Both the position numbers and the translations under genes were made by a program. Source: Minisyncoccota bacterium (GTDB lineage Bacteria; Patescibacteriota; Minisyncoccia; Phycocordibacterales; Phycocordibacteraceae). Taken from it: a DNA stretch of 64,000 nt. The notes under the pieces were generated by a model that was not told where the DNA came from, ran no database searches, and saw only the letters and a program-made list of their open reading frames with translations. The stretch is taken from NCBI GenBank assembly GCA_041663025.1, contig JBAZRE010000003.1, positions 2,157 through 66,156 of the forward strand. The letters run 5' to 3'. Positions 445-45,126 of the stretch are shown one piece after another. Position 1 is the first letter of the stretch. Every line of letters begins with the position of its first letter.

Positions 445-1446
445 CTACCGCTTTTTTTGCTCCTCTGCTTCGCTTAAATATGCACGACCTTTGGGTGTGA
501 GAAGGCGACCGCGCGAAGAGCGCTCGATGAAGCCGAGGCGCAGGAGGTAGGGCTCATACACATTTTCAATAGTGTCAGGTTCTTCGTGAATGGCTGCGGC
601 GAGCGCGCGAACGCCGGCGGGGCCGCCTCTGAAGCTTTGGAGAAGGGTTTCAAGATACCGACGATCATCTTTGGTGAGGCCGAATGCGTCAATGCCAAAA
701 AGCTCACAAGCCTCATCACAGAGCTTTGCAGAGAGTTTGCGCTCGTGTACCTCAGAGAAGTCGCGAACGCGCTTCAGAAGCGCGTTCGCGACGCGCGGAG
801 TCGCACGGCTTCTTGCCGCAACACGCTCTATAACTTCTTCGGGAGCAGAGAGCTCCAGGAGTTTGGCCGAACGACGAATGATATCGCGCAAATCAGCGTC
901 TTCATAAAAGTCGAGTTGATACACACCACCACCAAAGCGCGAGCGCAGCGGCCCTGAGAGCTCCGCGACACGCGTCGTTGCGCCGACGAGTGTGAAGGGA
1001 GGGAGGGCGAGCTCCACTGTGCGTGCCGAAGGGCCTTTCCCCAACACAATGTCCAGATGCCCTGATTCAAGAGCGGGGTAGAGGAGCTCTTCTATCTTTC
1101 TCGAGAGACGGTGAATTTCATCTATAAATAAAACAGTATTTGGTTCAAGATTAGTGAGTATTGCCGCGAGATCGCCTGCGCGCTCGATAGCGACGCCAGA
1201 GGTACTCTTCAGTGGCGATTCAAGCGTTATGGCGACGAGGTGTGCGAGAGTCGTTTTGCCCACCCCTGGTGGGCCGTAGAAGAGGAAGTGTTCGGGCATG
1301 CCGCCGCGCTTCTTTGCAGCATCGATCGAGATTCGCACATTCGCTTTTACTTGTTTTTGACCCACATATTCATCCCAGTGGCTCGGGCGTAAGACTGCAT
1401 CGAGTGATGCTGAAAGTGGGGCAGAGGCTTTGGGGGGGGTTGACAT
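445..1446 (-). CDS. ruvB: Holliday junction ATP-dependent DNA helicase RuvB
   Basis: 333 aa with Walker A GPPGVGKTTLA and the RuvB-specific C-terminal winged-helix region. Full-length similarity pattern to RuvB. Confidence 0.9.
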   Translation of the reverse strand: MSTPPKASAPLSASLDAVLRPSHWDEYVGQKQVKANVRISIDAAKKRGGMPEHFLFYGPPGVGKTTLAHLVAITLESPLKSTSGVAIERAGDLAAILTNLEPNTVLFIDEIHRLSRKIEELLYPALESGHLDIVLGKGPSARTVELALPPFTLVGATTRVAELSGPLRSRFGGGVYQLDFYEDADLRDIIRRSAKLLELSAPEEVIERVAARSRATPRVANALLKRVRDFSEVHERKLSAKLCDEACELFGIDAFGLTKDDRRYLETLLQSFRGGPAGVRALAAAIHEEPDTIENVYEPYLLRLGFIERSSRGRLLTPKGRAYLSEAEEQKKR

Positions 1447-10778: not shown

Positions 10779-11375
10779 ATGGACTTTGCATCGAAAAACC
10801 TTACGGCTGGTCAGTTAAACGCAATCGTGAAAAAACTCGGCGGTGAAGAAATGGCTTTACGATTTCTTCGTGATGAGCTTACGGTTTCTGAACCGATTGC
10901 GAAAAAACTTCTCAACTTTGTCACCACGACCAACGTTTCCGAAGTCACCTCGTTCATCGTCAAGGACAAATTCCGCGAAGGTAAGACGACCGACGGCGTG
11001 AAAATCGCATGGCTTGGTTCCAACTTCAAAGAAAACTTCCTTGGCAAAACGGAACGGGGTATCGCTTCGGCGACACTTCGTATCCAGAAGCTAACGAAAG
11101 ACTCTTTGGACGCCCCGATTCTGACAGAACTTGGCGATACGGCGGAAACGACACTTGCACAACTCTGGGAACTGATGAAGCTGCAGGGCTCCGGCCAAGA
11201 AGGAAAACTCCTCGTTAACGGTTGGGCGAATATCGTCTATATCCGCGACAAGAACGAAAACCTCTGGGCCGTGTACGCGCGCTGGAGCTCCGGCAGCGAC
11301 GGGTGGGTCGTTGGAGCCTATTCGGTCGAGAGCCCGGGTAGGTGGGGTGCCGACTTTCAGGTCGTCTCCCGCTGA
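10779..11375 (+). CDS. DGR-1 target (variable) protein; C-terminal 37 aa encoded by the variable repeat
   Basis: 198 aa with no signal peptide. The C-terminus ...LWAVYARWSSGSDGWVVGAYSVESPGRWGADFQVVSR is encoded by VR1, which matches TR1 except at TR adenines. Confidence 0.8.
   Translation: MDFASKNLTAGQLNAIVKKLGGEEMALRFLRDELTVSEPIAKKLLNFVTTTNVSEVTSFIVKDKFREGKTTDGVKIAWLGSNFKENFLGKTERGIASATLRIQKLTKDSLDAPILTELGDTAETTLAQLWELMKLQGSGQEGKLLVNGWANIVYIRDKNENLWAVYARWSSGSDGWVVGAYSVESPGRWGADFQVVSR
11262..11374 (+). repeat. DGR-1 variable repeat (VR1), 113 bp
   Basis: Aligns base-for-base with TR1 (11688-11800). I count 17 mismatches, and every one is A in TR1 versus T, G or C in VR1. Confidence 0.9.
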
Positions 11376-11405
11376 TTCTTTTCAACTCTGATCTTTTTGA
11401 ACCTT

Positions 11406-11456
11406 AGACCCTTTGAATCTTTGCCATTTTGGCATTGAAACGAAGGGTCTTTTGTT
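11406..11456 (+). terminator. Intrinsic terminator after DGR-1 target gene
   Basis: agaccctt...gccattttggc...aagggtct nested hairpin followed by TTTTGTT. Confidence 0.55.
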
Positions 11457-11687
11457 ATAATAAAAACAAGGATGTCTTGGGTGCGGCGAGCATGCTCTTC
11501 GCACAGCGCCTTGGGAAATCAGTACTCCAGAATTGTGTCGAGCATGCTCGCCATGAGCGCGGGTACGATTGTCCAAAAAAAGATTAGAATCGGTGTGCGA
11601 TGTTGGTGGACTTTGATGTCCCGAATCAGGTACAACCTTGAGAGTATTCAAGAGGTGGTGGTATGGATGGCATCACACACAAACGTG

Positions 11688-11800
11688 CTCTGGGCCGTGA
11701 ACGCGAACTGGAACTCCGGCAACGACGGGTGGAACGTTGAAGCCAATTCGGTCGAGAACCCGAATAGGTGGAGTGCCGACAATCAGGTCGTCTCCCGCAA
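11688..11800 (+). repeat. DGR-1 template repeat (TR1), 113 bp
   Basis: Asn-codon (AAC) rich copy of VR1. Reading frame LWAVNANWNSGNDGWNVEANSVENPNRWSADNQVVSR. Followed by a hairpin plus T-run at 11812-11840. Confidence 0.9.
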
Positions 11801-12208
11801 CTCTCGTCTTTTCCCGTCTCCACTTGGAGGCGGGTTTTTCGCTATAATACCTCTCTTCCATCCACCGACCATGCGTCCTATTTCTTCAACATCTTTCCCG
11901 AGTGATATAAAATGGCTCTGCGCCATGAGTCCTGATTCCCACGCGATTTGGATAAAGAAGCGAACAGCATCAACAGCACGAATTGCTTCTTCAAGTGGGG
12001 GCAATTTTTGGTCGATCGATGCGTATGCGGTTTTACGTAGTGCGTCTAATAAGTTAAGCCAGAGCTTGTCGATCCGGTCACCAATACCGAAGCGCTCTGA
12101 ACGCGCCATTTTCCGATGAGCGACGAGCCAAATTTTGTAAGCGACTTTAGCTCGCTCAATCACCGGCAAAAGCTTCTGGGGGGGGGTTACTTCTAGGAAG
12201 AAATTCAC
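11783..12208 (-). CDS. avd: Avd-like accessory variability determinant (four-helix-bundle protein, 23S rRNA IVS protein family)
   Basis: 141 aa with heptad-rich helical pattern FGIGDRIDKLWLNLLDALRK...EEIGRMVGGWKRG resembling phage BPP-1 Avd and PF05635 proteins. It lies between TR1 and the RT but on the opposite strand. Its N-terminus overlaps the poly-G tract as poly-Pro. Confidence 0.7.
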   Translation of the reverse strand: MNFFLEVTPPQKLLPVIERAKVAYKIWLVAHRKMARSERFGIGDRIDKLWLNLLDALRKTAYASIDQKLPPLEEAIRAVDAVRFFIQIAWESGLMAQSHFISLGKDVEEIGRMVGGWKRGIIAKNPPPSGDGKRRELRETT

Positions 12209-13187
12209 TCATACGTATGAGAGTATCATTTCGGTTGAAAATATTCTCGGCGCGTGGCGAGAATTTATAAAAGGGAAGAGGAAACGTACTGACGTACAAG
12301 AATTTGAAAGATATTTGATGCATAACGTTTTAGAACTGCACCAAGAACTCGTGGCAGGCACCTATCAACATGGCGGCTATCACCATTTCAAGATCAGCGA
12401 CCCCAAGCCGCGCGACATTCATAAAGCGAGTGTGCGTGACCGACTGGTACACCACGCTCTTTATCGTCAACTCTATCCATTTTTTGACAAAACGTTCATC
12501 AGCGATTCGTATTCATGCCGAAGAGAGAAGGGGACACATAAGGCGATGAACCGCTTCAGAGCCTTTGCGCGCAAGGTTTCTAAAAATAATACGCGCACCT
12601 GTTGGGTGTTGAAGTGCGATATCAGAAAATTCTTCGCATCTATCGATCAAGCCAAACTCATACAGATTCTTAAACAGCGAATATCAGACGAACGCATTGT
12701 CCAGCTTGTTGAGAAAGTCATCACGAGTTTCTCAAGTACTGAAAAAGGGAAGGGTCTACCACTCGGGAACCTCACCTCACAACTCCTCGTAAACATCTAT
12801 ATGAACAAGTTTGATCAGTTTGTTAAACATGAGCTAAAAGCAAAGCATTATATTCGCTACGCTGATGACTTTGTATTTTTATCATCCGACCGTTCATTTC
12901 TTACCTCACTTTTGCCCCTTATTCATAATTTTCTACATGACCATCTCGCTCTTGAGTTACATCCAGGTAAGGTCTCTATCAACACGCTTGCATCCGGCAT
13001 TGATTTCCTCGGCTGGGTGCATTTTCCAGACCATCGCGTTTTACGCACCTCTACCAAAAAGCGGATGTTCCGGCGTATTATAGAAACGAAAAGTAGGAAA
13101 GAAACAGTGCAGTCATATCTCGGCCTCTTGAGTCATGGCAACACACATAAACTGCAATCAGTTGCATTTTCTGACTACAACCTATAA
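12150..13187 (+). CDS. DGR reverse transcriptase (copy 1). Track ORF starts at TTG 12315, but the conserved RT N-terminus is in frame from 12150 with no ATG/GTG/TTG
   Basis: LPLGNLTSQLLVNIY is the DGR-specific [IVL]GxxxSQ motif (replacing QGxxxSP). RYADDFVF is the YxDD active site. Upstream in-frame codons encode ...KKFTHTYESIISVENILGAWREFIKGKRKRTDVQEFERYL, the conserved N-terminal extension of DGR RTs. Confidence 0.85.
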   Translation, partial: ARSITGKSFWGGVTSRKKFTHTYESIISVENILGAWREFIKGKRKRTDVQEFERYLMHNVLELHQELVAGTYQHGGYHHFKISDPKPRDIHKASVRDRLVHHALYRQLYPFFDKTFISDSYSCRREKGTHKAMNRFRAFARKVSKNNTRTCWVLKCDIRKFFASIDQAKLIQILKQRISDERIVQLVEKVITSFSSTEKGKGLPLGNLTSQLLVNIYMNKFDQFVKHELKAKHYIRYADDFVFLSSDRSFLTSLLPLIHNFLHDHLALELHPGKVSINTLASGIDFLGWVHFPDHRVLRTSTKKRMFRRIIETKSRKETVQSYLGLLSHGNTHKLQSVAFSDYNL

Positions 13188-42553: not shown

Positions 42554-43252
42554 ATGAAGAAAGACATGTTAGGTTCGATAGTACGCGCGGCAGTGGGTGT
42601 CCCTCAAAATCGGCTTGAAGTGCTCGCCAAAATCGCGAGTGCGATCGCAGAGGACAACCCGAATGGCAACGAGTGGTTCTCTCGTTTCGAGAATCTACTC
42701 AAAGAAGAGTTGTCTTCTAAAACGGCAGTCGTATTCGAGCGCAATGAATATGGCCACATCGTGTTCACGATCACAGGTCTCGATCTCACTGGCGCACAAG
42801 AGATTACACGGCTCACGGATGCAAAGTATCGCATCGGCGACTACGCTAAGCAGATGCTCACGAGCACGAAGCCCGATGGGTATGATGCGAAGCATAGACT
42901 CGTCGCGGGGCAGTCGTACATGATCGTTCTCATTCCTGGTAAGGAGATTGAGAACGACTCCGGCCGCACGACTGCAAATCTGCAGAAGCTCGGTGAAAAG
43001 CTCGGCTACGACAAACCGCTTGCCGGAATCGTCCAGCGCATTCGCGAGGCGGTCTCTGACAAACAGATGGAAGAAATGGGGTTCTGGTATATCGCCGGGC
43101 TTCATAATCCCATCACGGGTGCCGATGGCCGCCCGGGCGTGCTGGGTGCGGGTCGCGACGATGATGGTCGTTGGCTCTTCGGCTATTGGGGCATTCCCGA
43201 TGGTCATTGGGACGGCGATGGCGCGTTCGCCTTCGTCCTCCCTGCAAGTTAG
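42554..43252 (+). CDS. DGR-2 target (variable) protein; C-terminal ~45 aa encoded by VR2
   Basis: 232 aa with no signal peptide. C-terminus ...ADGRPGVLGAGRDDDGRWLFGYWGIPDGHWDGDGAFAFVLPAS is encoded by VR2. Confidence 0.8.
   Translation: MKKDMLGSIVRAAVGVPQNRLEVLAKIASAIAEDNPNGNEWFSRFENLLKEELSSKTAVVFERNEYGHIVFTITGLDLTGAQEITRLTDAKYRIGDYAKQMLTSTKPDGYDAKHRLVAGQSYMIVLIPGKEIENDSGRTTANLQKLGEKLGYDKPLAGIVQRIREAVSDKQMEEMGFWYIAGLHNPITGADGRPGVLGAGRDDDGRWLFGYWGIPDGHWDGDGAFAFVLPAS
43112..43247 (+). repeat. DGR-2 variable repeat (VR2), 136 bp
   Basis: Aligns with TR2 (43579-43714). I count 22 mismatches, and all are TR adenine to G/T/C in VR. Confidence 0.9.
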
Positions 43253-43302
43253 AACTTGTACCTTCGAATCTTAGGGCTTGCCCTTGGATTCTTAACTCTT
43301 AA

Positions 43303-43328
43303 TCCCGCACTTTAGTGCGGGATTTTGT
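43303..43328 (+). terminator. Intrinsic terminator after DGR-2 target gene
   Basis: cccgcac ttta gtgcggg followed by ATTTTGTT. Confidence 0.6.
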
Positions 43329-43578
43329 TATATTGAAAGAGGTAGTAGGTGAATACGCGGGCGATCACTAGAGCACTAGAGCAATCTTAGGTTTCTCGCT
43401 ACCGAGGCCAGTATCCGTACATTGAGAGCCTGTTAGATTACGGTTTAATAGGGGGGATGTATGCAGACACTTCAAAAATGAAGATACTTGGTGCGCTCGC
43501 TTGGTCCATTTCGATGGCAGATACGATTCAACTCGGAGAGTATTCTATGGGTGGTGGCATTGATGAGCGAGCGTACAA

Positions 43579-43714
43579 ATCACGGATGCCGATGGCAACC
43601 CGAACGTGCTGAATGCGAATCGCAACGATGATGGTCAATGGCTCAACAGCTATTGGGACAATCCCGATAATCATTGGAACGACAATGGCGCGTTCGCCTT
43701 CGTCCTCCCTGCAA
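43579..43714 (+). repeat. DGR-2 template repeat (TR2), 136 bp
   Basis: AAC-rich (ADGNPNVLNANRNDDGQWLNSYWDNPDNHWNDNGAFAFVLPA). Followed by hairpin ctcgctcgt...acgagcgag plus TTTTGTTTTG at 43726-43760. Confidence 0.9.
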
Positions 43715-43738
43715 CTCTCTTCATTTCTCGCTCGTACC

Positions 43739-44089
43739 TCACGGCACGAGCGAGTTTTGTTTTGTGAGCTGACCATTCCAACCGCCAAGCATCTTGCCGA
43801 TTTCTTCGAGCGGAATGGAGAGTGCAACATATTCTTTCGTCTCAAGCGATTTGGTCTCCCAGAGAATCAACAGAAATATTTTCAACGTTTCAAGCTTGCG
43901 TATGGCGAGCCGCACCCATGGTTGCTTCTCGGTTTTTGAGAGGAATGTTGCGCTCGCGACTGCCTCAATCAGTGTGACAAATTCTGCATCTATCTTGCCA
44001 CCGAGCGTATAGCGATGAGTCTTAGGGATTGTCTGATAAAATGTATACCATAGGATATACGCATGCTTAATTCTCTCCAAAACAGGCAA
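43739..44089 (-). CDS. avd: Avd-like accessory variability determinant (copy 2)
   Basis: 116 aa starting at TTG. IPKTHRYTLGGKIDAEFVTLIEA...EEIGKMLGGWNGQL matches avd1 and the BPP-1 Avd pattern. Antisense to TR2 and RT2. Confidence 0.7.
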   Translation of the reverse strand: MPVLERIKHAYILWYTFYQTIPKTHRYTLGGKIDAEFVTLIEAVASATFLSKTEKQPWVRLAIRKLETLKIFLLILWETKSLETKEYVALSIPLEEIGKMLGGWNGQLTKQNSLVP

Positions 44090-45126
44090 GAGCTTCTGGG
44101 GGGGGGGTTACTTCTAGGAAGAAATTCACTCATTCATCCGAGCATATCATTTCAGTTGAAAATTTACTCGGAGCGTGGCAAGAATTTATAAGGGGCAAAC
44201 GCAAACGTGATGACGTACAAGAATTCGAACGGTATTTGATGCACAATGTTTTAGAATTGCATCGCGAGCTTGCTGCTGGCACCTATAAACACGGCGGCTA
44301 CCATCACTTTAAGATCAGCGACCCGAAACCACGCGATATTCATAAAGCGAGCGTGCGAGATCGGCTCATTCATCACGCTCTCTATCGCCAACTTTATCCA
44401 TTCTTTGACCGTACATTCATACTAGACTCGTATTCGTGCCGCCTCAACAGAGGCACTCATCGGGCGATGAACCGCTTTCGAGCTTTCGCATATCAAGTAT
44501 CTAAAAACGACACGTGCACTTGCTGGGTTCTCAAATGCGATATACGAAAGTTCTTCGCTTCCATCGATCAAGAAATATTGATGGAGATTATTAGTACCTA
44601 TATATCAGATAAACGCATCTGTGTACTTATCCAAAATATCATCACCAGCTTCAACTCTTGTGCAACAAGGAAGGGTTTGCCACTCGGGAACCTTACCTCG
44701 CAACTGCTTGTGAATATCTATATGGGTGAATTTGACCAGTTTGTTAAACATAAACTAAAAGTGAAGTATTATATCCGCTACGCAGACGACTTTGTGATTC
44801 TTTCTGCTAACAAAAATTATTTGTTGCGAGTACTACCATATATGGAAGCATTTTTGCATGACCAACTAAAGCTCAGTCTGCATCCAGACAAAGTATTCAT
44901 AAGAACCCTTGCCTCAGGGATTGATTTTCTTGGTTGGATGCATCGCCCCAATTATCGCGTATTACGGACGGCAACCAAAAATAGGATGTTCCGCACGATC
45001 AAAAAGAGCGAAGGGAAGCCTGAAGTGCTGCACTCTTATCTTGGCATGTTGAGTCATGGAAACACACAGAGACTTCAAGAGAAAGCAATTTCTTTCGCAA
45101 ATATGCTAGGATGCCCGTATGGATAA
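44071..45126 (+). CDS. DGR reverse transcriptase (copy 2). Track ORF starts at TTG 44236; conserved N-terminal coding is in frame from 44071 without a canonical start
   Basis: LPLGNLTSQLLVNIY ([IVL]GxxxSQ) and RYADDFVIL. About 75% aa identity to RT1. Upstream in-frame ...KKFTHSSEHIISVENLLGAWQEFIRGKRKRDDVQEFERYL. Confidence 0.85.
   Translation, partial: FSPKQARASGGGVTSRKKFTHSSEHIISVENLLGAWQEFIRGKRKRDDVQEFERYLMHNVLELHRELAAGTYKHGGYHHFKISDPKPRDIHKASVRDRLIHHALYRQLYPFFDRTFILDSYSCRLNRGTHRAMNRFRAFAYQVSKNDTCTCWVLKCDIRKFFASIDQEILMEIISTYISDKRICVLIQNIITSFNSCATRKGLPLGNLTSQLLVNIYMGEFDQFVKHKLKVKYYIRYADDFVILSANKNYLLRVLPYMEAFLHDQLKLSLHPDKVFIRTLASGIDFLGWMHRPNYRVLRTATKNRMFRTIKKSEGKPEVLHSYLGMLSHGNTQRLQEKAISFANMLGCPYG

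Follow-up and report, generated by a model that had tools for sequence, protein, structure and literature searches.

A conserved G/C homopolymer in the overlap of the avd and reverse transcriptase genes of Patescibacteria diversity-generating retroelements: a candidate frameshift switch

Introduction

How is a reverse transcriptase translated when the conserved N-terminal part of its reading frame emerges from a run of guanines and holds no start codon? The question is raised twice by the window analysed here, a 64,000-nucleotide stretch of DNA from a Minisyncoccota bacterium (Patescibacteriota; GenBank assembly GCA_041663025.1, contig JBAZRE010000003.1, positions 2,157 to 66,156 of the forward strand). 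The window carries two diversity-generating retroelement (DGR) cassettes of identical layout, in which a target gene with a C-terminal variable repeat (VR; plus strand) is followed by a template repeat (TR; plus strand), avd (minus strand) and the reverse transcriptase gene (RT; plus strand). The explanation to which we give slightly better than an even chance, from the comparison of related loci, is that the run serves avd and RT jointly as a conserved, hypermutable frameshift tract and gates DGR activity as a DNA-level switch. An earlier note on this DNA had listed a slippage or phase-variable switch on the RT, non-AUG initiation and homopolymer sequencing error as possibilities; comparative evidence favours the first of the three, with the correction that the switch would not be confined to the RT, since avd shares the tract. 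The note had overlooked the unequal run lengths, an upstream ATG in copy 1 and the position of the tract within the 5' end of avd. To our knowledge, the regulation of DGR mutagenesis in nature is largely unknown, and no report of a DGR combined with a repeat switch was found in the searchable literature (open-access papers only). The two copies of the window are also designated W1 and W2; related loci are labelled L and homologous proteins P, each with a number.

The run and the reading frame of the RT genes

Counted by script, the run is G9 in copy 1 and G10 in copy 2 (the coordinates of all features are collected in Table 1). The earlier count of ten in both copies stands for copy 2 and is one too high for copy 1, where the run begins at 12178 and not at 12177; the G9 of copy 1 was reproduced in a second (ENA) assembly of the same contig. 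As had been reported, each run is embedded in a block that is identical in the two copies, consisting of 7 nt, the run and 26 nt. About 0.3 G/C runs of at least nine would be expected in 64 kb and two were observed, at homologous positions. G/C runs of at least eight number three in all, the two DGR tracts and a C8 in ruvB.

The annotated start of the copy 1 RT at 12315/12318 removes 44 conserved codons, which lie between the run and the annotated TTG/ATG (12186-12317 in copy 1, 44107-44238 in copy 2). They align with residues 6-44 of the Bordetella DGR RT (8ub7) and match the N-termini of hundreds of homologues. Comparison of the two copies gave 30 identical codons, seven synonymous and seven non-synonymous differences, and the changes were distributed 6/5/11 over the three codon positions, third positions changing most. 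Judged by alignment and codon pattern, the 44 codons are genuine RT coding sequence under purifying selection, which bears out what the note had proposed. It was also right that the RT frame holds no ATG, GTG or TTG from the preceding stop codon to 12315 in copy 1 or 44236 in copy 2. The frame-opening stop of copy 1 had been misplaced: positions 12147-49 read TTA, and the actual stop at G9 is TAA 12138-12140. The stop that was meant corresponds to TAG 12148-50, in the frame that a tenth G would give.

Upstream of the tract, ATG 44063 of copy 2 is one frame off the RT, as had been described. Copy 1 had been said to lack such a codon; its ATG 12116 (MSDEPNFVSDFSSLNHRQKLLGGG) is followed by a frame that is open through the run, has the same relative frame as that of ATG 44063 and fuses to the RT at G8 or G11. 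Six nucleotides upstream of ATG 44063 stands TAGGAT (44051-44056), a leaderless-type -10 sequence as at other genes of the window, and TAGGAT-N6-ATG occurs also at gene 45119. In-frame leaders of the form MNDEP...RGGG are present in the homologues P0035, P0050 and P0057.

The avd start on the minus strand

On the minus strand, reading towards the tract, the copy 1 avd leader begins at an ATG that is the antisense of an RT His codon, CAT. Only a run of C8 or C11 joins it to the Avd body in frame. The extended -10-like box in front of it is made from the RT codons AGT ATC A. The identity of the 26 nt after the run in the two copies would be explained by their encoding the RT N-terminus and the avd leader together.

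The codons of the RT that carry these minus-strand signals were examined across the related loci. The His of the F-x-H motif is CAT at 66/66 loci, against 52% CAT elsewhere in the same RTs (p~2e-19). The codon that precedes the first Ile (Ile1) ends in T at 80/80 loci, against 52% T-ending codons elsewhere (p~2e-23), and Ile1 itself is ATC at 77/87, against 39% (p~6e-22). Control sites were unbiased (adjacent Tyr, TAT 32 and TAC 43; Ile2, ATC 32 and ATT 46). On the minus strand the three fixed sites correspond to the A of the ATG, the A of the -10 box and the G of the extended -10 'TG', and together they spell TGnTAnnnT-N7-ATG. The open reading frame (ORF) from the antisense ATG is open to the tract in 62/62 loci. 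Avd proteins with an in-frame MSE...PPP...LLPV N-terminus are found in databases (e.g. P0175, MSEFLPQSNPPPKLLPVIERAK), and the MSE leader is kept without an intact tract in P0228 and P0177 (interrupted in P0177).

Genes of the window often carry TAnnnT 6-7 nt upstream of the ATG (e.g. 4022, 18964, 23056, 24543, 45119, 48847 and 51310), and a ribosome-binding motif was found for only about 10/54 long ORFs, so leaderless mRNAs appear to be common in this organism. On this evidence avd is most likely a leaderless gene starting at 12212(-) in copy 1 and 44133(-) in copy 2, its first codons crossing the tract as prolines; we infer the leaderless transcription start from a -10 box at a fixed short distance from a strictly conserved ATG. 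A start at the TTG after the tract (12169 in W1, 44089 in W2), where the Pfam alignment begins and which gene callers use, was considered and rejected. This Leu codon is TTG at 28 loci, CTG at 15, TTA at seven, CTA at five, CTC at five and CTT at three, and no canonical start lies near it in 23/74; a codon so variable is taken as internal and not as a start. A peptide under selection (Pro-Pro-Pro or Gly-Gly-Gly) was likewise rejected, since the tract is in every case an uninterrupted homopolymer and, for the most part, out of frame.

In one related locus, L152 (363-411), avd lies on the same strand as the RT and 1.6 kb upstream of it; its leader (ATG AGC GAA, MSE) is followed 37 nt later by C12, at which length it is out of frame with the Avd body. 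As the tract lies inside the avd 5' end and persists in this locus, where avd is apart from the RT, it is primarily a feature of avd.

Tract length and frame

Variants from G8 to G12 were modelled for both copies, the model covering frame geometry and not expression. Avd and RT are in frame with their own ATGs only at G8 or G11, in either copy. At these lengths Avd would read MSEFLPRSNPP(P)QKLLPV..., the copy 1 RT MSDEPNF...LLGG(G)VTSRKKFTH... and the copy 2 RT MLNSLQNRQELLGG(G)VTSRKKFTH.... The avd leader stands in the exact antisense register of the RT and the RT leaders in the exact antisense register of avd, so that one length class (L mod 3 = 2) frames both genes. The assembled G9 and G10 deprive the RT of a start in both copies and put avd in a different frame from its ATG. 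The tract-spanning peptides predicted are MSEFLPRSNPPPQK for Avd and ...LLGGGVTSR for the RT.

The tract across related loci

A set of 160 related loci was taken from genome and metagenome collections, with RTs 64-78% identical to that of copy 1, and 107 loci were anchored on the motif IISxEN for run counts. The note had proposed that the same tract be sought in homologous RT loci, and a pure run of G6-G13 was found just upstream of the RT N-terminus in 102/107, with a mode of 9-10 (G10 in 31, G9 in 27, G8 in 14, G11 in 11). Runs at this junction number 85 (of 92 anchored loci), compared with eight other G/C runs of at least seven in 442 kb. In two loci the homopolymer just upstream of the RT ATG is replaced by another repeat, (GGCT) x about 11 in L071 and (GGCGGCT) x about 7 in L059, the units of which are both 1 mod 3.

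Five clusters of loci with 0-1 mismatch in 1.4 kb of flank have unequal runs (G11/G10, G12/G11, G11/G9, G12/G13 and G11/G10); six independent pairs with identical flanks have the same run length. Near-identical pairs in the set are L023/L106, L028/L115, L031/L033, L056/L146 and L067/L159. Within RT clusters of 90% identity, N-terminal extensions derive from all three upstream frames, differ by one Gly, or give way to truncation at an internal Met. Systematic mis-assembly, the alternative to a tract that is hypervariable in nature, cannot account for the conserved position or for the dominance of out-of-frame states. At the level of sequence the tract shows what is looked for in a simple-repeat contingency locus: a pure run (an uninterrupted mononucleotide tract of about 8 or more), placement at the 5' end, polymorphism in identical backgrounds and conservation at the orthologous site. 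A metagenome scan returned no near-identical strain of the organism, the best match being 78%.

Two further G-runs lie near the DGR in the near-identical loci L031 (3404-3413 and 5253-5262) and L033 (3557-3565 and 5405-5414). One borders directly on TATAAT-N6-ATG of a gene for a secreted protein and differs in length between the two loci (G10 and G9); the second lies 12 nt upstream of a second avd-like gene. Very long poly-C/G stretches occur at contig ends beside the RT gene in L065 (1-49, C49), L160 (1-54) and L114 (23-90); they were discarded as most likely assembly or sequencing artefacts, possibly seeded at a real tract.

Two architectures and the frames that occur

The loci fall into two classes. 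In class I (about 60% of loci) an ATG or GTG belonging to the RT follows the tract. The commonest layout, in 23 loci, is tract, TAnnnT, 7 nt and start, with the first T in 17/23, the A in 20/23 and the last T in 22/23, and the hexamer resembles a -10 box from which a leaderless RT mRNA would be transcribed. In class II, to which the window belongs, the TAnnnT/start segment is missing and the RT frame can be entered only from upstream of the tract; 18/31 of these loci have no in-frame RT start at the assembled length. A -10 box precedes the RT leader ATG in 12/32 loci in which the RT is read through the tract.

Frames were tallied for 85 de-duplicated loci. The avd body is in frame with its own ATG in 16, shifted by +1 in 37 and by -1 in 32, the two shifted states being equally common. 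Tracts of the CSWSL subgroup are in frame in 0/16 and invariably miss the in-frame length by one step. About 25/63 Avd homologues are called from the internal Met of 'MARSERF', which means that no usable upstream start was found for them.

How the tract may act

The frameshift switch introduced above would work as follows. The G9/G10 run would be a hypermutable homopolymer at the place where the two protein genes of a Patescibacteria-type DGR overlap head to head. On the minus strand, TGnTAnnnT hidden in RT codons would drive a leaderless avd mRNA from the ATG antisense to the RT His, and translation would pass through about nine leader codons and the tract, as Pro codons, into the Avd four-helix bundle. 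On the plus strand of class II loci, the RT N-terminus would be reachable only from an ATG beyond the tract (12116; 44063). Avd and RT are indispensable to mutagenic retrohoming, and slipped-strand mispairing, by gain or loss of one G:C pair, would toggle the production of both. The likely driver is slippage at the DNA level, to which slipping of RNA polymerase or of ribosomes within the run could add. DGR activity would then be a stochastic, reversible and mostly-off trait. The conservation and purity of the tract, the length differences between otherwise identical loci, the frame geometry and the synonymous-site constraints were observed; from here we infer switching within cells and control of protein output by tract length. 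That one homopolymer, read oppositely by two overlapping leaderless genes, switches Avd and RT jointly, and that this arrangement is conserved across Patescibacteria, is put forward more tentatively, at somewhat less than an even chance.

Several points weigh against the switch. In-frame lengths are not enriched: avd is in frame in 14/54 class I loci, near the 1/3 expected by chance, and in only 2/31 class II loci (p about 0.0005), and more in-frame loci would be expected if in-frame simply meant the working state. No -10-like box was found at the upstream RT ATG of copy 1, 12116. A GTG at 12208, 4 nt inside the putative leaderless mRNA, is at G9 the only start in frame with the avd body of copy 1, so that copy 1 Avd may not be fully off at this length. 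Moreover, some technical error attaches to the lengths called for G/C runs in metagenome assemblies, and the related loci are not statistically independent. The depletion of in-frame lengths may mean that the fully-on state is selected against in the population consensus, as in a mostly-off contingency switch; it may also mean that productive expression normally proceeds by RNA polymerase or ribosome slippage on the tract.

The latter possibility, taken as the normal route, is the alternative that survives best, and we consider it unlikely without being implausible. The DNA would be out of frame on purpose and the tract an expression attenuator, a small in-frame fraction being produced by polymerase slippage on the 9-13 nt run or by ribosomal +1/-1 slippage on CCC/GGG (Pro-Pro-Pro stall). 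Such decoding would agree with the depletion of in-frame alleles (2/31 RT-through-tract loci, 0/16 in the CSWSL subgroup), with tract lengths that centre on 9-10, about the length of the RNA:DNA hybrid, and with out-of-frame gene bodies that are both intact and under purifying selection. Programmed frameshift sites, however, normally have one fixed frame relation and stimulatory elements, and here there is no consistent shift direction (+1 against -1, 15 against 14); with 16/37/32 over the 85 loci, the tally speaks against programmed frameshifting of the classical type. For bacterial RNA polymerase, the best-documented slippage is that on A/T runs rather than G/C runs, and the length differences are seen directly in the DNA.

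An untranslated promoter or 5'-UTR (untranslated region) element, such as the -35/-10 spacer of a bidirectional promoter whose length tunes transcription while the frames are irrelevant, is improbable. It would suit class I loci, where the tract directly abuts TAnnnT, 7 nt and the RT start (23 loci, 13-nt spacing) and where tract length modulo 3 looks random, and also the extra G-runs of L031 and L033, which directly adjoin the -10 boxes of neighbouring genes. It does not suit the window, where no RT start follows the tract. Translation of avd through the tract is favoured by the antisense ATG, strictly conserved and provided with a -10 box and an always-open leader, and by the existing Avd proteins that contain the leader. 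For the class I RT the promoter reading could hold and still be a form of phase variation.

It is very improbable that the RT starts at a non-canonical codon at or after the tract, or that a truncated RT from 12315/12318 is functional and the tract incidental. A TTG or GTG directly abuts the run in L011, L019, L022, L084 and L087, and a promoter-like TTGAAA-18-GAGAAT/AAGAAT lies at 12235-12264 and 44156-44185 (+), inside the N-terminal coding region of both copies and upstream of the annotated start. In W1 and W2, by contrast, the codons at and after the run are GTT ACT TCT AGG AAG, and neither a start nor a near-cognate codon with a usable ribosome-binding motif is present; non-AUG initiation, as entertained in the note, finds no conserved near-cognate codon or ribosome-binding site after the run. 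The promoter-like match follows conserved codons and occurs at chance level (two found, 1.2-1.5 expected), and the 44 upstream codons are under purifying selection and match the structured residues 6-44 of the Bordetella RT (bRT). The following were also tried and set aside. AGGAAG after the run has no start codon at a usable spacing as a ribosome-binding site; the G-run as ribosome-binding motif fits only those relatives in which TTG or GTG abuts it, not the window; and a two-hexamer promoter scan missed boxes consisting of a -10 only, its matches inside RT coding sequence being at chance level.

The two remaining explanations are hardly credible. Runs of 9-13 G/C are error-prone, poly-C/G artefacts stand at the contig ends of L065, L160 and L114, and some of the metagenome-assembled genomes may, to judge by their names, derive from long reads, but an assembly or sequencing error concealing a true length that frames an ATG in both copies, and thus ordinary genes, is opposed by the repetition of G9 in the second assembly, by an internal tract kept in position in >100 assemblies from many projects with about three quarters out of frame, by the difference between the copies within one assembly, and by in-frame solutions that are not one step away in the same direction. 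Nor is it to be expected that both copies are decaying pseudogenes inactivated by homopolymer frameshifts: avd and RT do lack an in-frame ATG at the assembled lengths, but there are no other lesions in the long intact ORFs, copy divergence is biased to synonymous changes, the TR/VR pairs are intact with an A-specific signature, and the same 'defect' is kept family-wide at the same site.

Relation to known systems

Phase variation of poly-G/C contingency loci, a form of simple-repeat variation by slipped-strand mispairing, is outlined as a general concept in PMC2831843 and PMC8355987. The tract shares with the loci of Campylobacter jejuni, Neisseria and Haemophilus a pure G/C run of about 8-12 nt near the 5' end of an ORF, variation in length between near-identical genomes, a frame that shifts with a change of one unit, and a retained orthologous position. 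It differs from them in that the genes controlled would be the DGR core (Avd and RT) rather than surface, restriction-modification or virulence genes, in that one tract is read oppositely by two overlapping genes, and in that the hosts are uncultured Patescibacteria.

The nearest architectural analogue is hifA/hifB of Haemophilus influenzae, where TA repeats in overlapping divergent promoters set the -35/-10 spacing. Both arrangements have one simple repeat between divergent genes that co-regulates the two; that of hifA/hifB is transcriptional, whereas here the tract lies inside both 5' coding regions and would act on the frame, a role as promoter spacer being possible only for the class I RT. 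Transcriptional slippage is known from the A9 of Thermus thermophilus dnaX, from transposases of insertion sequence (IS) elements and from poly(A) rescue in endosymbionts. These genes too have a homopolymer of hybrid length between an upstream start and an out-of-frame body, but their runs are A/T with a fixed frame relation, in contrast to the G/C run here with its equally frequent +1 and -1 states.

We know of no homopolymer tract in the DGR of Bordetella phage BPP-1. That element (avd-TR-brt; 8ub7 to 8ube) has a homologous RT, a bAvd-family protein and an adenine-specific TR/VR pair in common with the present ones. In the latter, unlike BPP-1, avd is placed between TR and RT on the opposite strand, in head-to-head overlap with the RT, the TR has its own promoter and a terminator-like hairpin, both genes are apparently leaderless, and a homopolymer stands in the overlap. 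Contingency loci in phage genomes, hypermutable frameshift-prone repeats that serve bet-hedging outside the classical surface genes of pathogens, are described in PMC12633550; they concern other genes and hosts and are not linked there to DGRs.

Implications

If the frameshift switch is real, DGR activity in abundant bacteria with small genomes would be stochastic, heritable and mostly off rather than constitutive or regulated by signals, which would explain the silent look of many DGRs in time-series metagenomes, and tract length modulo 3 would be a directly testable predictor of DGR activity. A simple contingency locus would gate a targeted hypermutation system, giving a two-tier evolvability device. 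Relative to known contingency loci, what would be new is control over the core of another diversification system and the sharing of one tract between divergent genes that overlap. As a case of dual-strand coding constraint the head-to-head arrangement is unusually clean, the start signals of each gene being written in the synonymous sites of its partner.

For annotation, hundreds of RT and Avd genes are truncated or mis-started by gene callers, a systematic artefact that the tract causes. Examples are the 289-aa RT of this window, Avd entries of 95-103 aa that begin 'MARSERF...', N-terminal extensions in three frames, RTs cut to about 290-320 aa in many assemblies, and Avd truncated to 73-103 aa ('MARSERF...') in many assemblies (L162 818-1039; hits P0200-P0226). 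With such truncation, Patescibacteria DGR catalogues are systematically distorted.

The cassettes and other features of the window

The element qualifies as a bona fide DGR on its RT, its Avd and its TR/VR pair. The RT carries Pfam RVT_1, and its top match among solved structures is 8ub7 (E=1.2e-51), query residues 8-314 aligning with bRT 6-302. Avd belongs to PF22296 (bAvd); copy 2 scored 44.5 bits, above the cut-off of 40, and copy 1 36.4 bits, below it, with homologues that carry PF22296. TR adenines account for 18/24 TR/VR mismatches in copy 1; in copy 2, 26/46 are A-to-N in an alignment that runs past the repeat ends. Judging from the A-specific mismatches, both DGRs have been active. Both TRs have an extended -10 of their own and a terminator-like hairpin, from which the TR RNA seems to be a separate short transcript that is not co-transcribed with the RT; the hairpins overlap the avd 3' end.

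Table 1
Features of the two DGR cassettes (positions refer to the window)
Feature	Position	Strand	Basis or remark
Copy 1 homopolymer, G9 (+) / C9 (-)	12178..12186		Counted by script
Copy 2 homopolymer, G10 / C10	44098..44107		Counted by script
Copy 1 DGR RT with conserved N-terminus (VTSRKKFTHTYESIISVEN...)	12186..13187	+	From last G of run
Copy 2 DGR RT including conserved N-terminus	44107..45126	+	
Copy 1 upstream RT leader ORF, ATG 12116, MSDEPNFVSDFSSLNHRQKLL	12116..12177	+	Runs into tract
Copy 2 upstream RT leader ORF, ATG 44063, MLNSLQNRQELL	44063..44097	+	
Copy 1 avd leader, MSEFLPRSN then Pro codons of C-run	12187..12212	-	ATG 12212..12210
Copy 2 avd leader, MSEFLPRSN and Pro run	44108..44133	-	ATG 44133..44131; 26 nt as in copy 1
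Copy 1 extended -10-like box TGATACTCT	12220..12228	-	7 nt upstream of avd ATG
Copy 2 extended -10-like box TGATATGCT	44141..44149	-	7 nt upstream of ATG
Copy 1 Avd body, QKLLPVIERAK... to TGA 11785..11783, bAvd four-helix bundle	11783..12177	-	Pfam PF22296, ORF
Copy 2 Avd body	43739..44097	-	Pfam PF22296, ORF
Copy 1 TR	11688..11825	+	TR/VR alignment
Copy 2 TR	43579..43761	+	TR/VR alignment
Copy 1 TR extended -10 TGTTATAAT	11453-11461	+	Coordinates checked
Copy 2 TR extended -10 TGTTATATT	43326-43334	+	Coordinates checked
Copy 1 terminator-like hairpin	11813-11834		
Copy 2 terminator-like hairpin	about 43733-43760		
Copy 1 VR, 3' end of target gene 10779-11375	11262..11395	+	TR/VR alignment
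Copy 2 VR, 3' end of target gene 42554-43252	43112..43293	+	TR/VR alignment

An Rfam scan of the whole window returned tRNAs only, with no match at the tract. In copy 1 a 215-aa ORF (11472-12119, +) begins just past the TR promoter, crosses the TR and the antisense of avd and overlaps the RT leader ATG 12116 at its end (ATGA); no conservation of it is seen in copy 2, and it is probably a by-product of the open VR frame and the open antisense register. A perfect TATAAT (11841-11846, +) stands directly after the copy 1 TR hairpin, within the antisense of the avd 3' end, and could serve as the promoter of an RT mRNA with a long leader in copy 1; nothing equivalent is present in copy 2. The C8 of ruvB (445..1446, -) lies at 1432-1439, in frame and in codons 3-5 (ATG TCA ACC CCC CCC AAA, MSTPPK), and could be another slippage-prone 5' tract, in this case in a DNA-repair gene.

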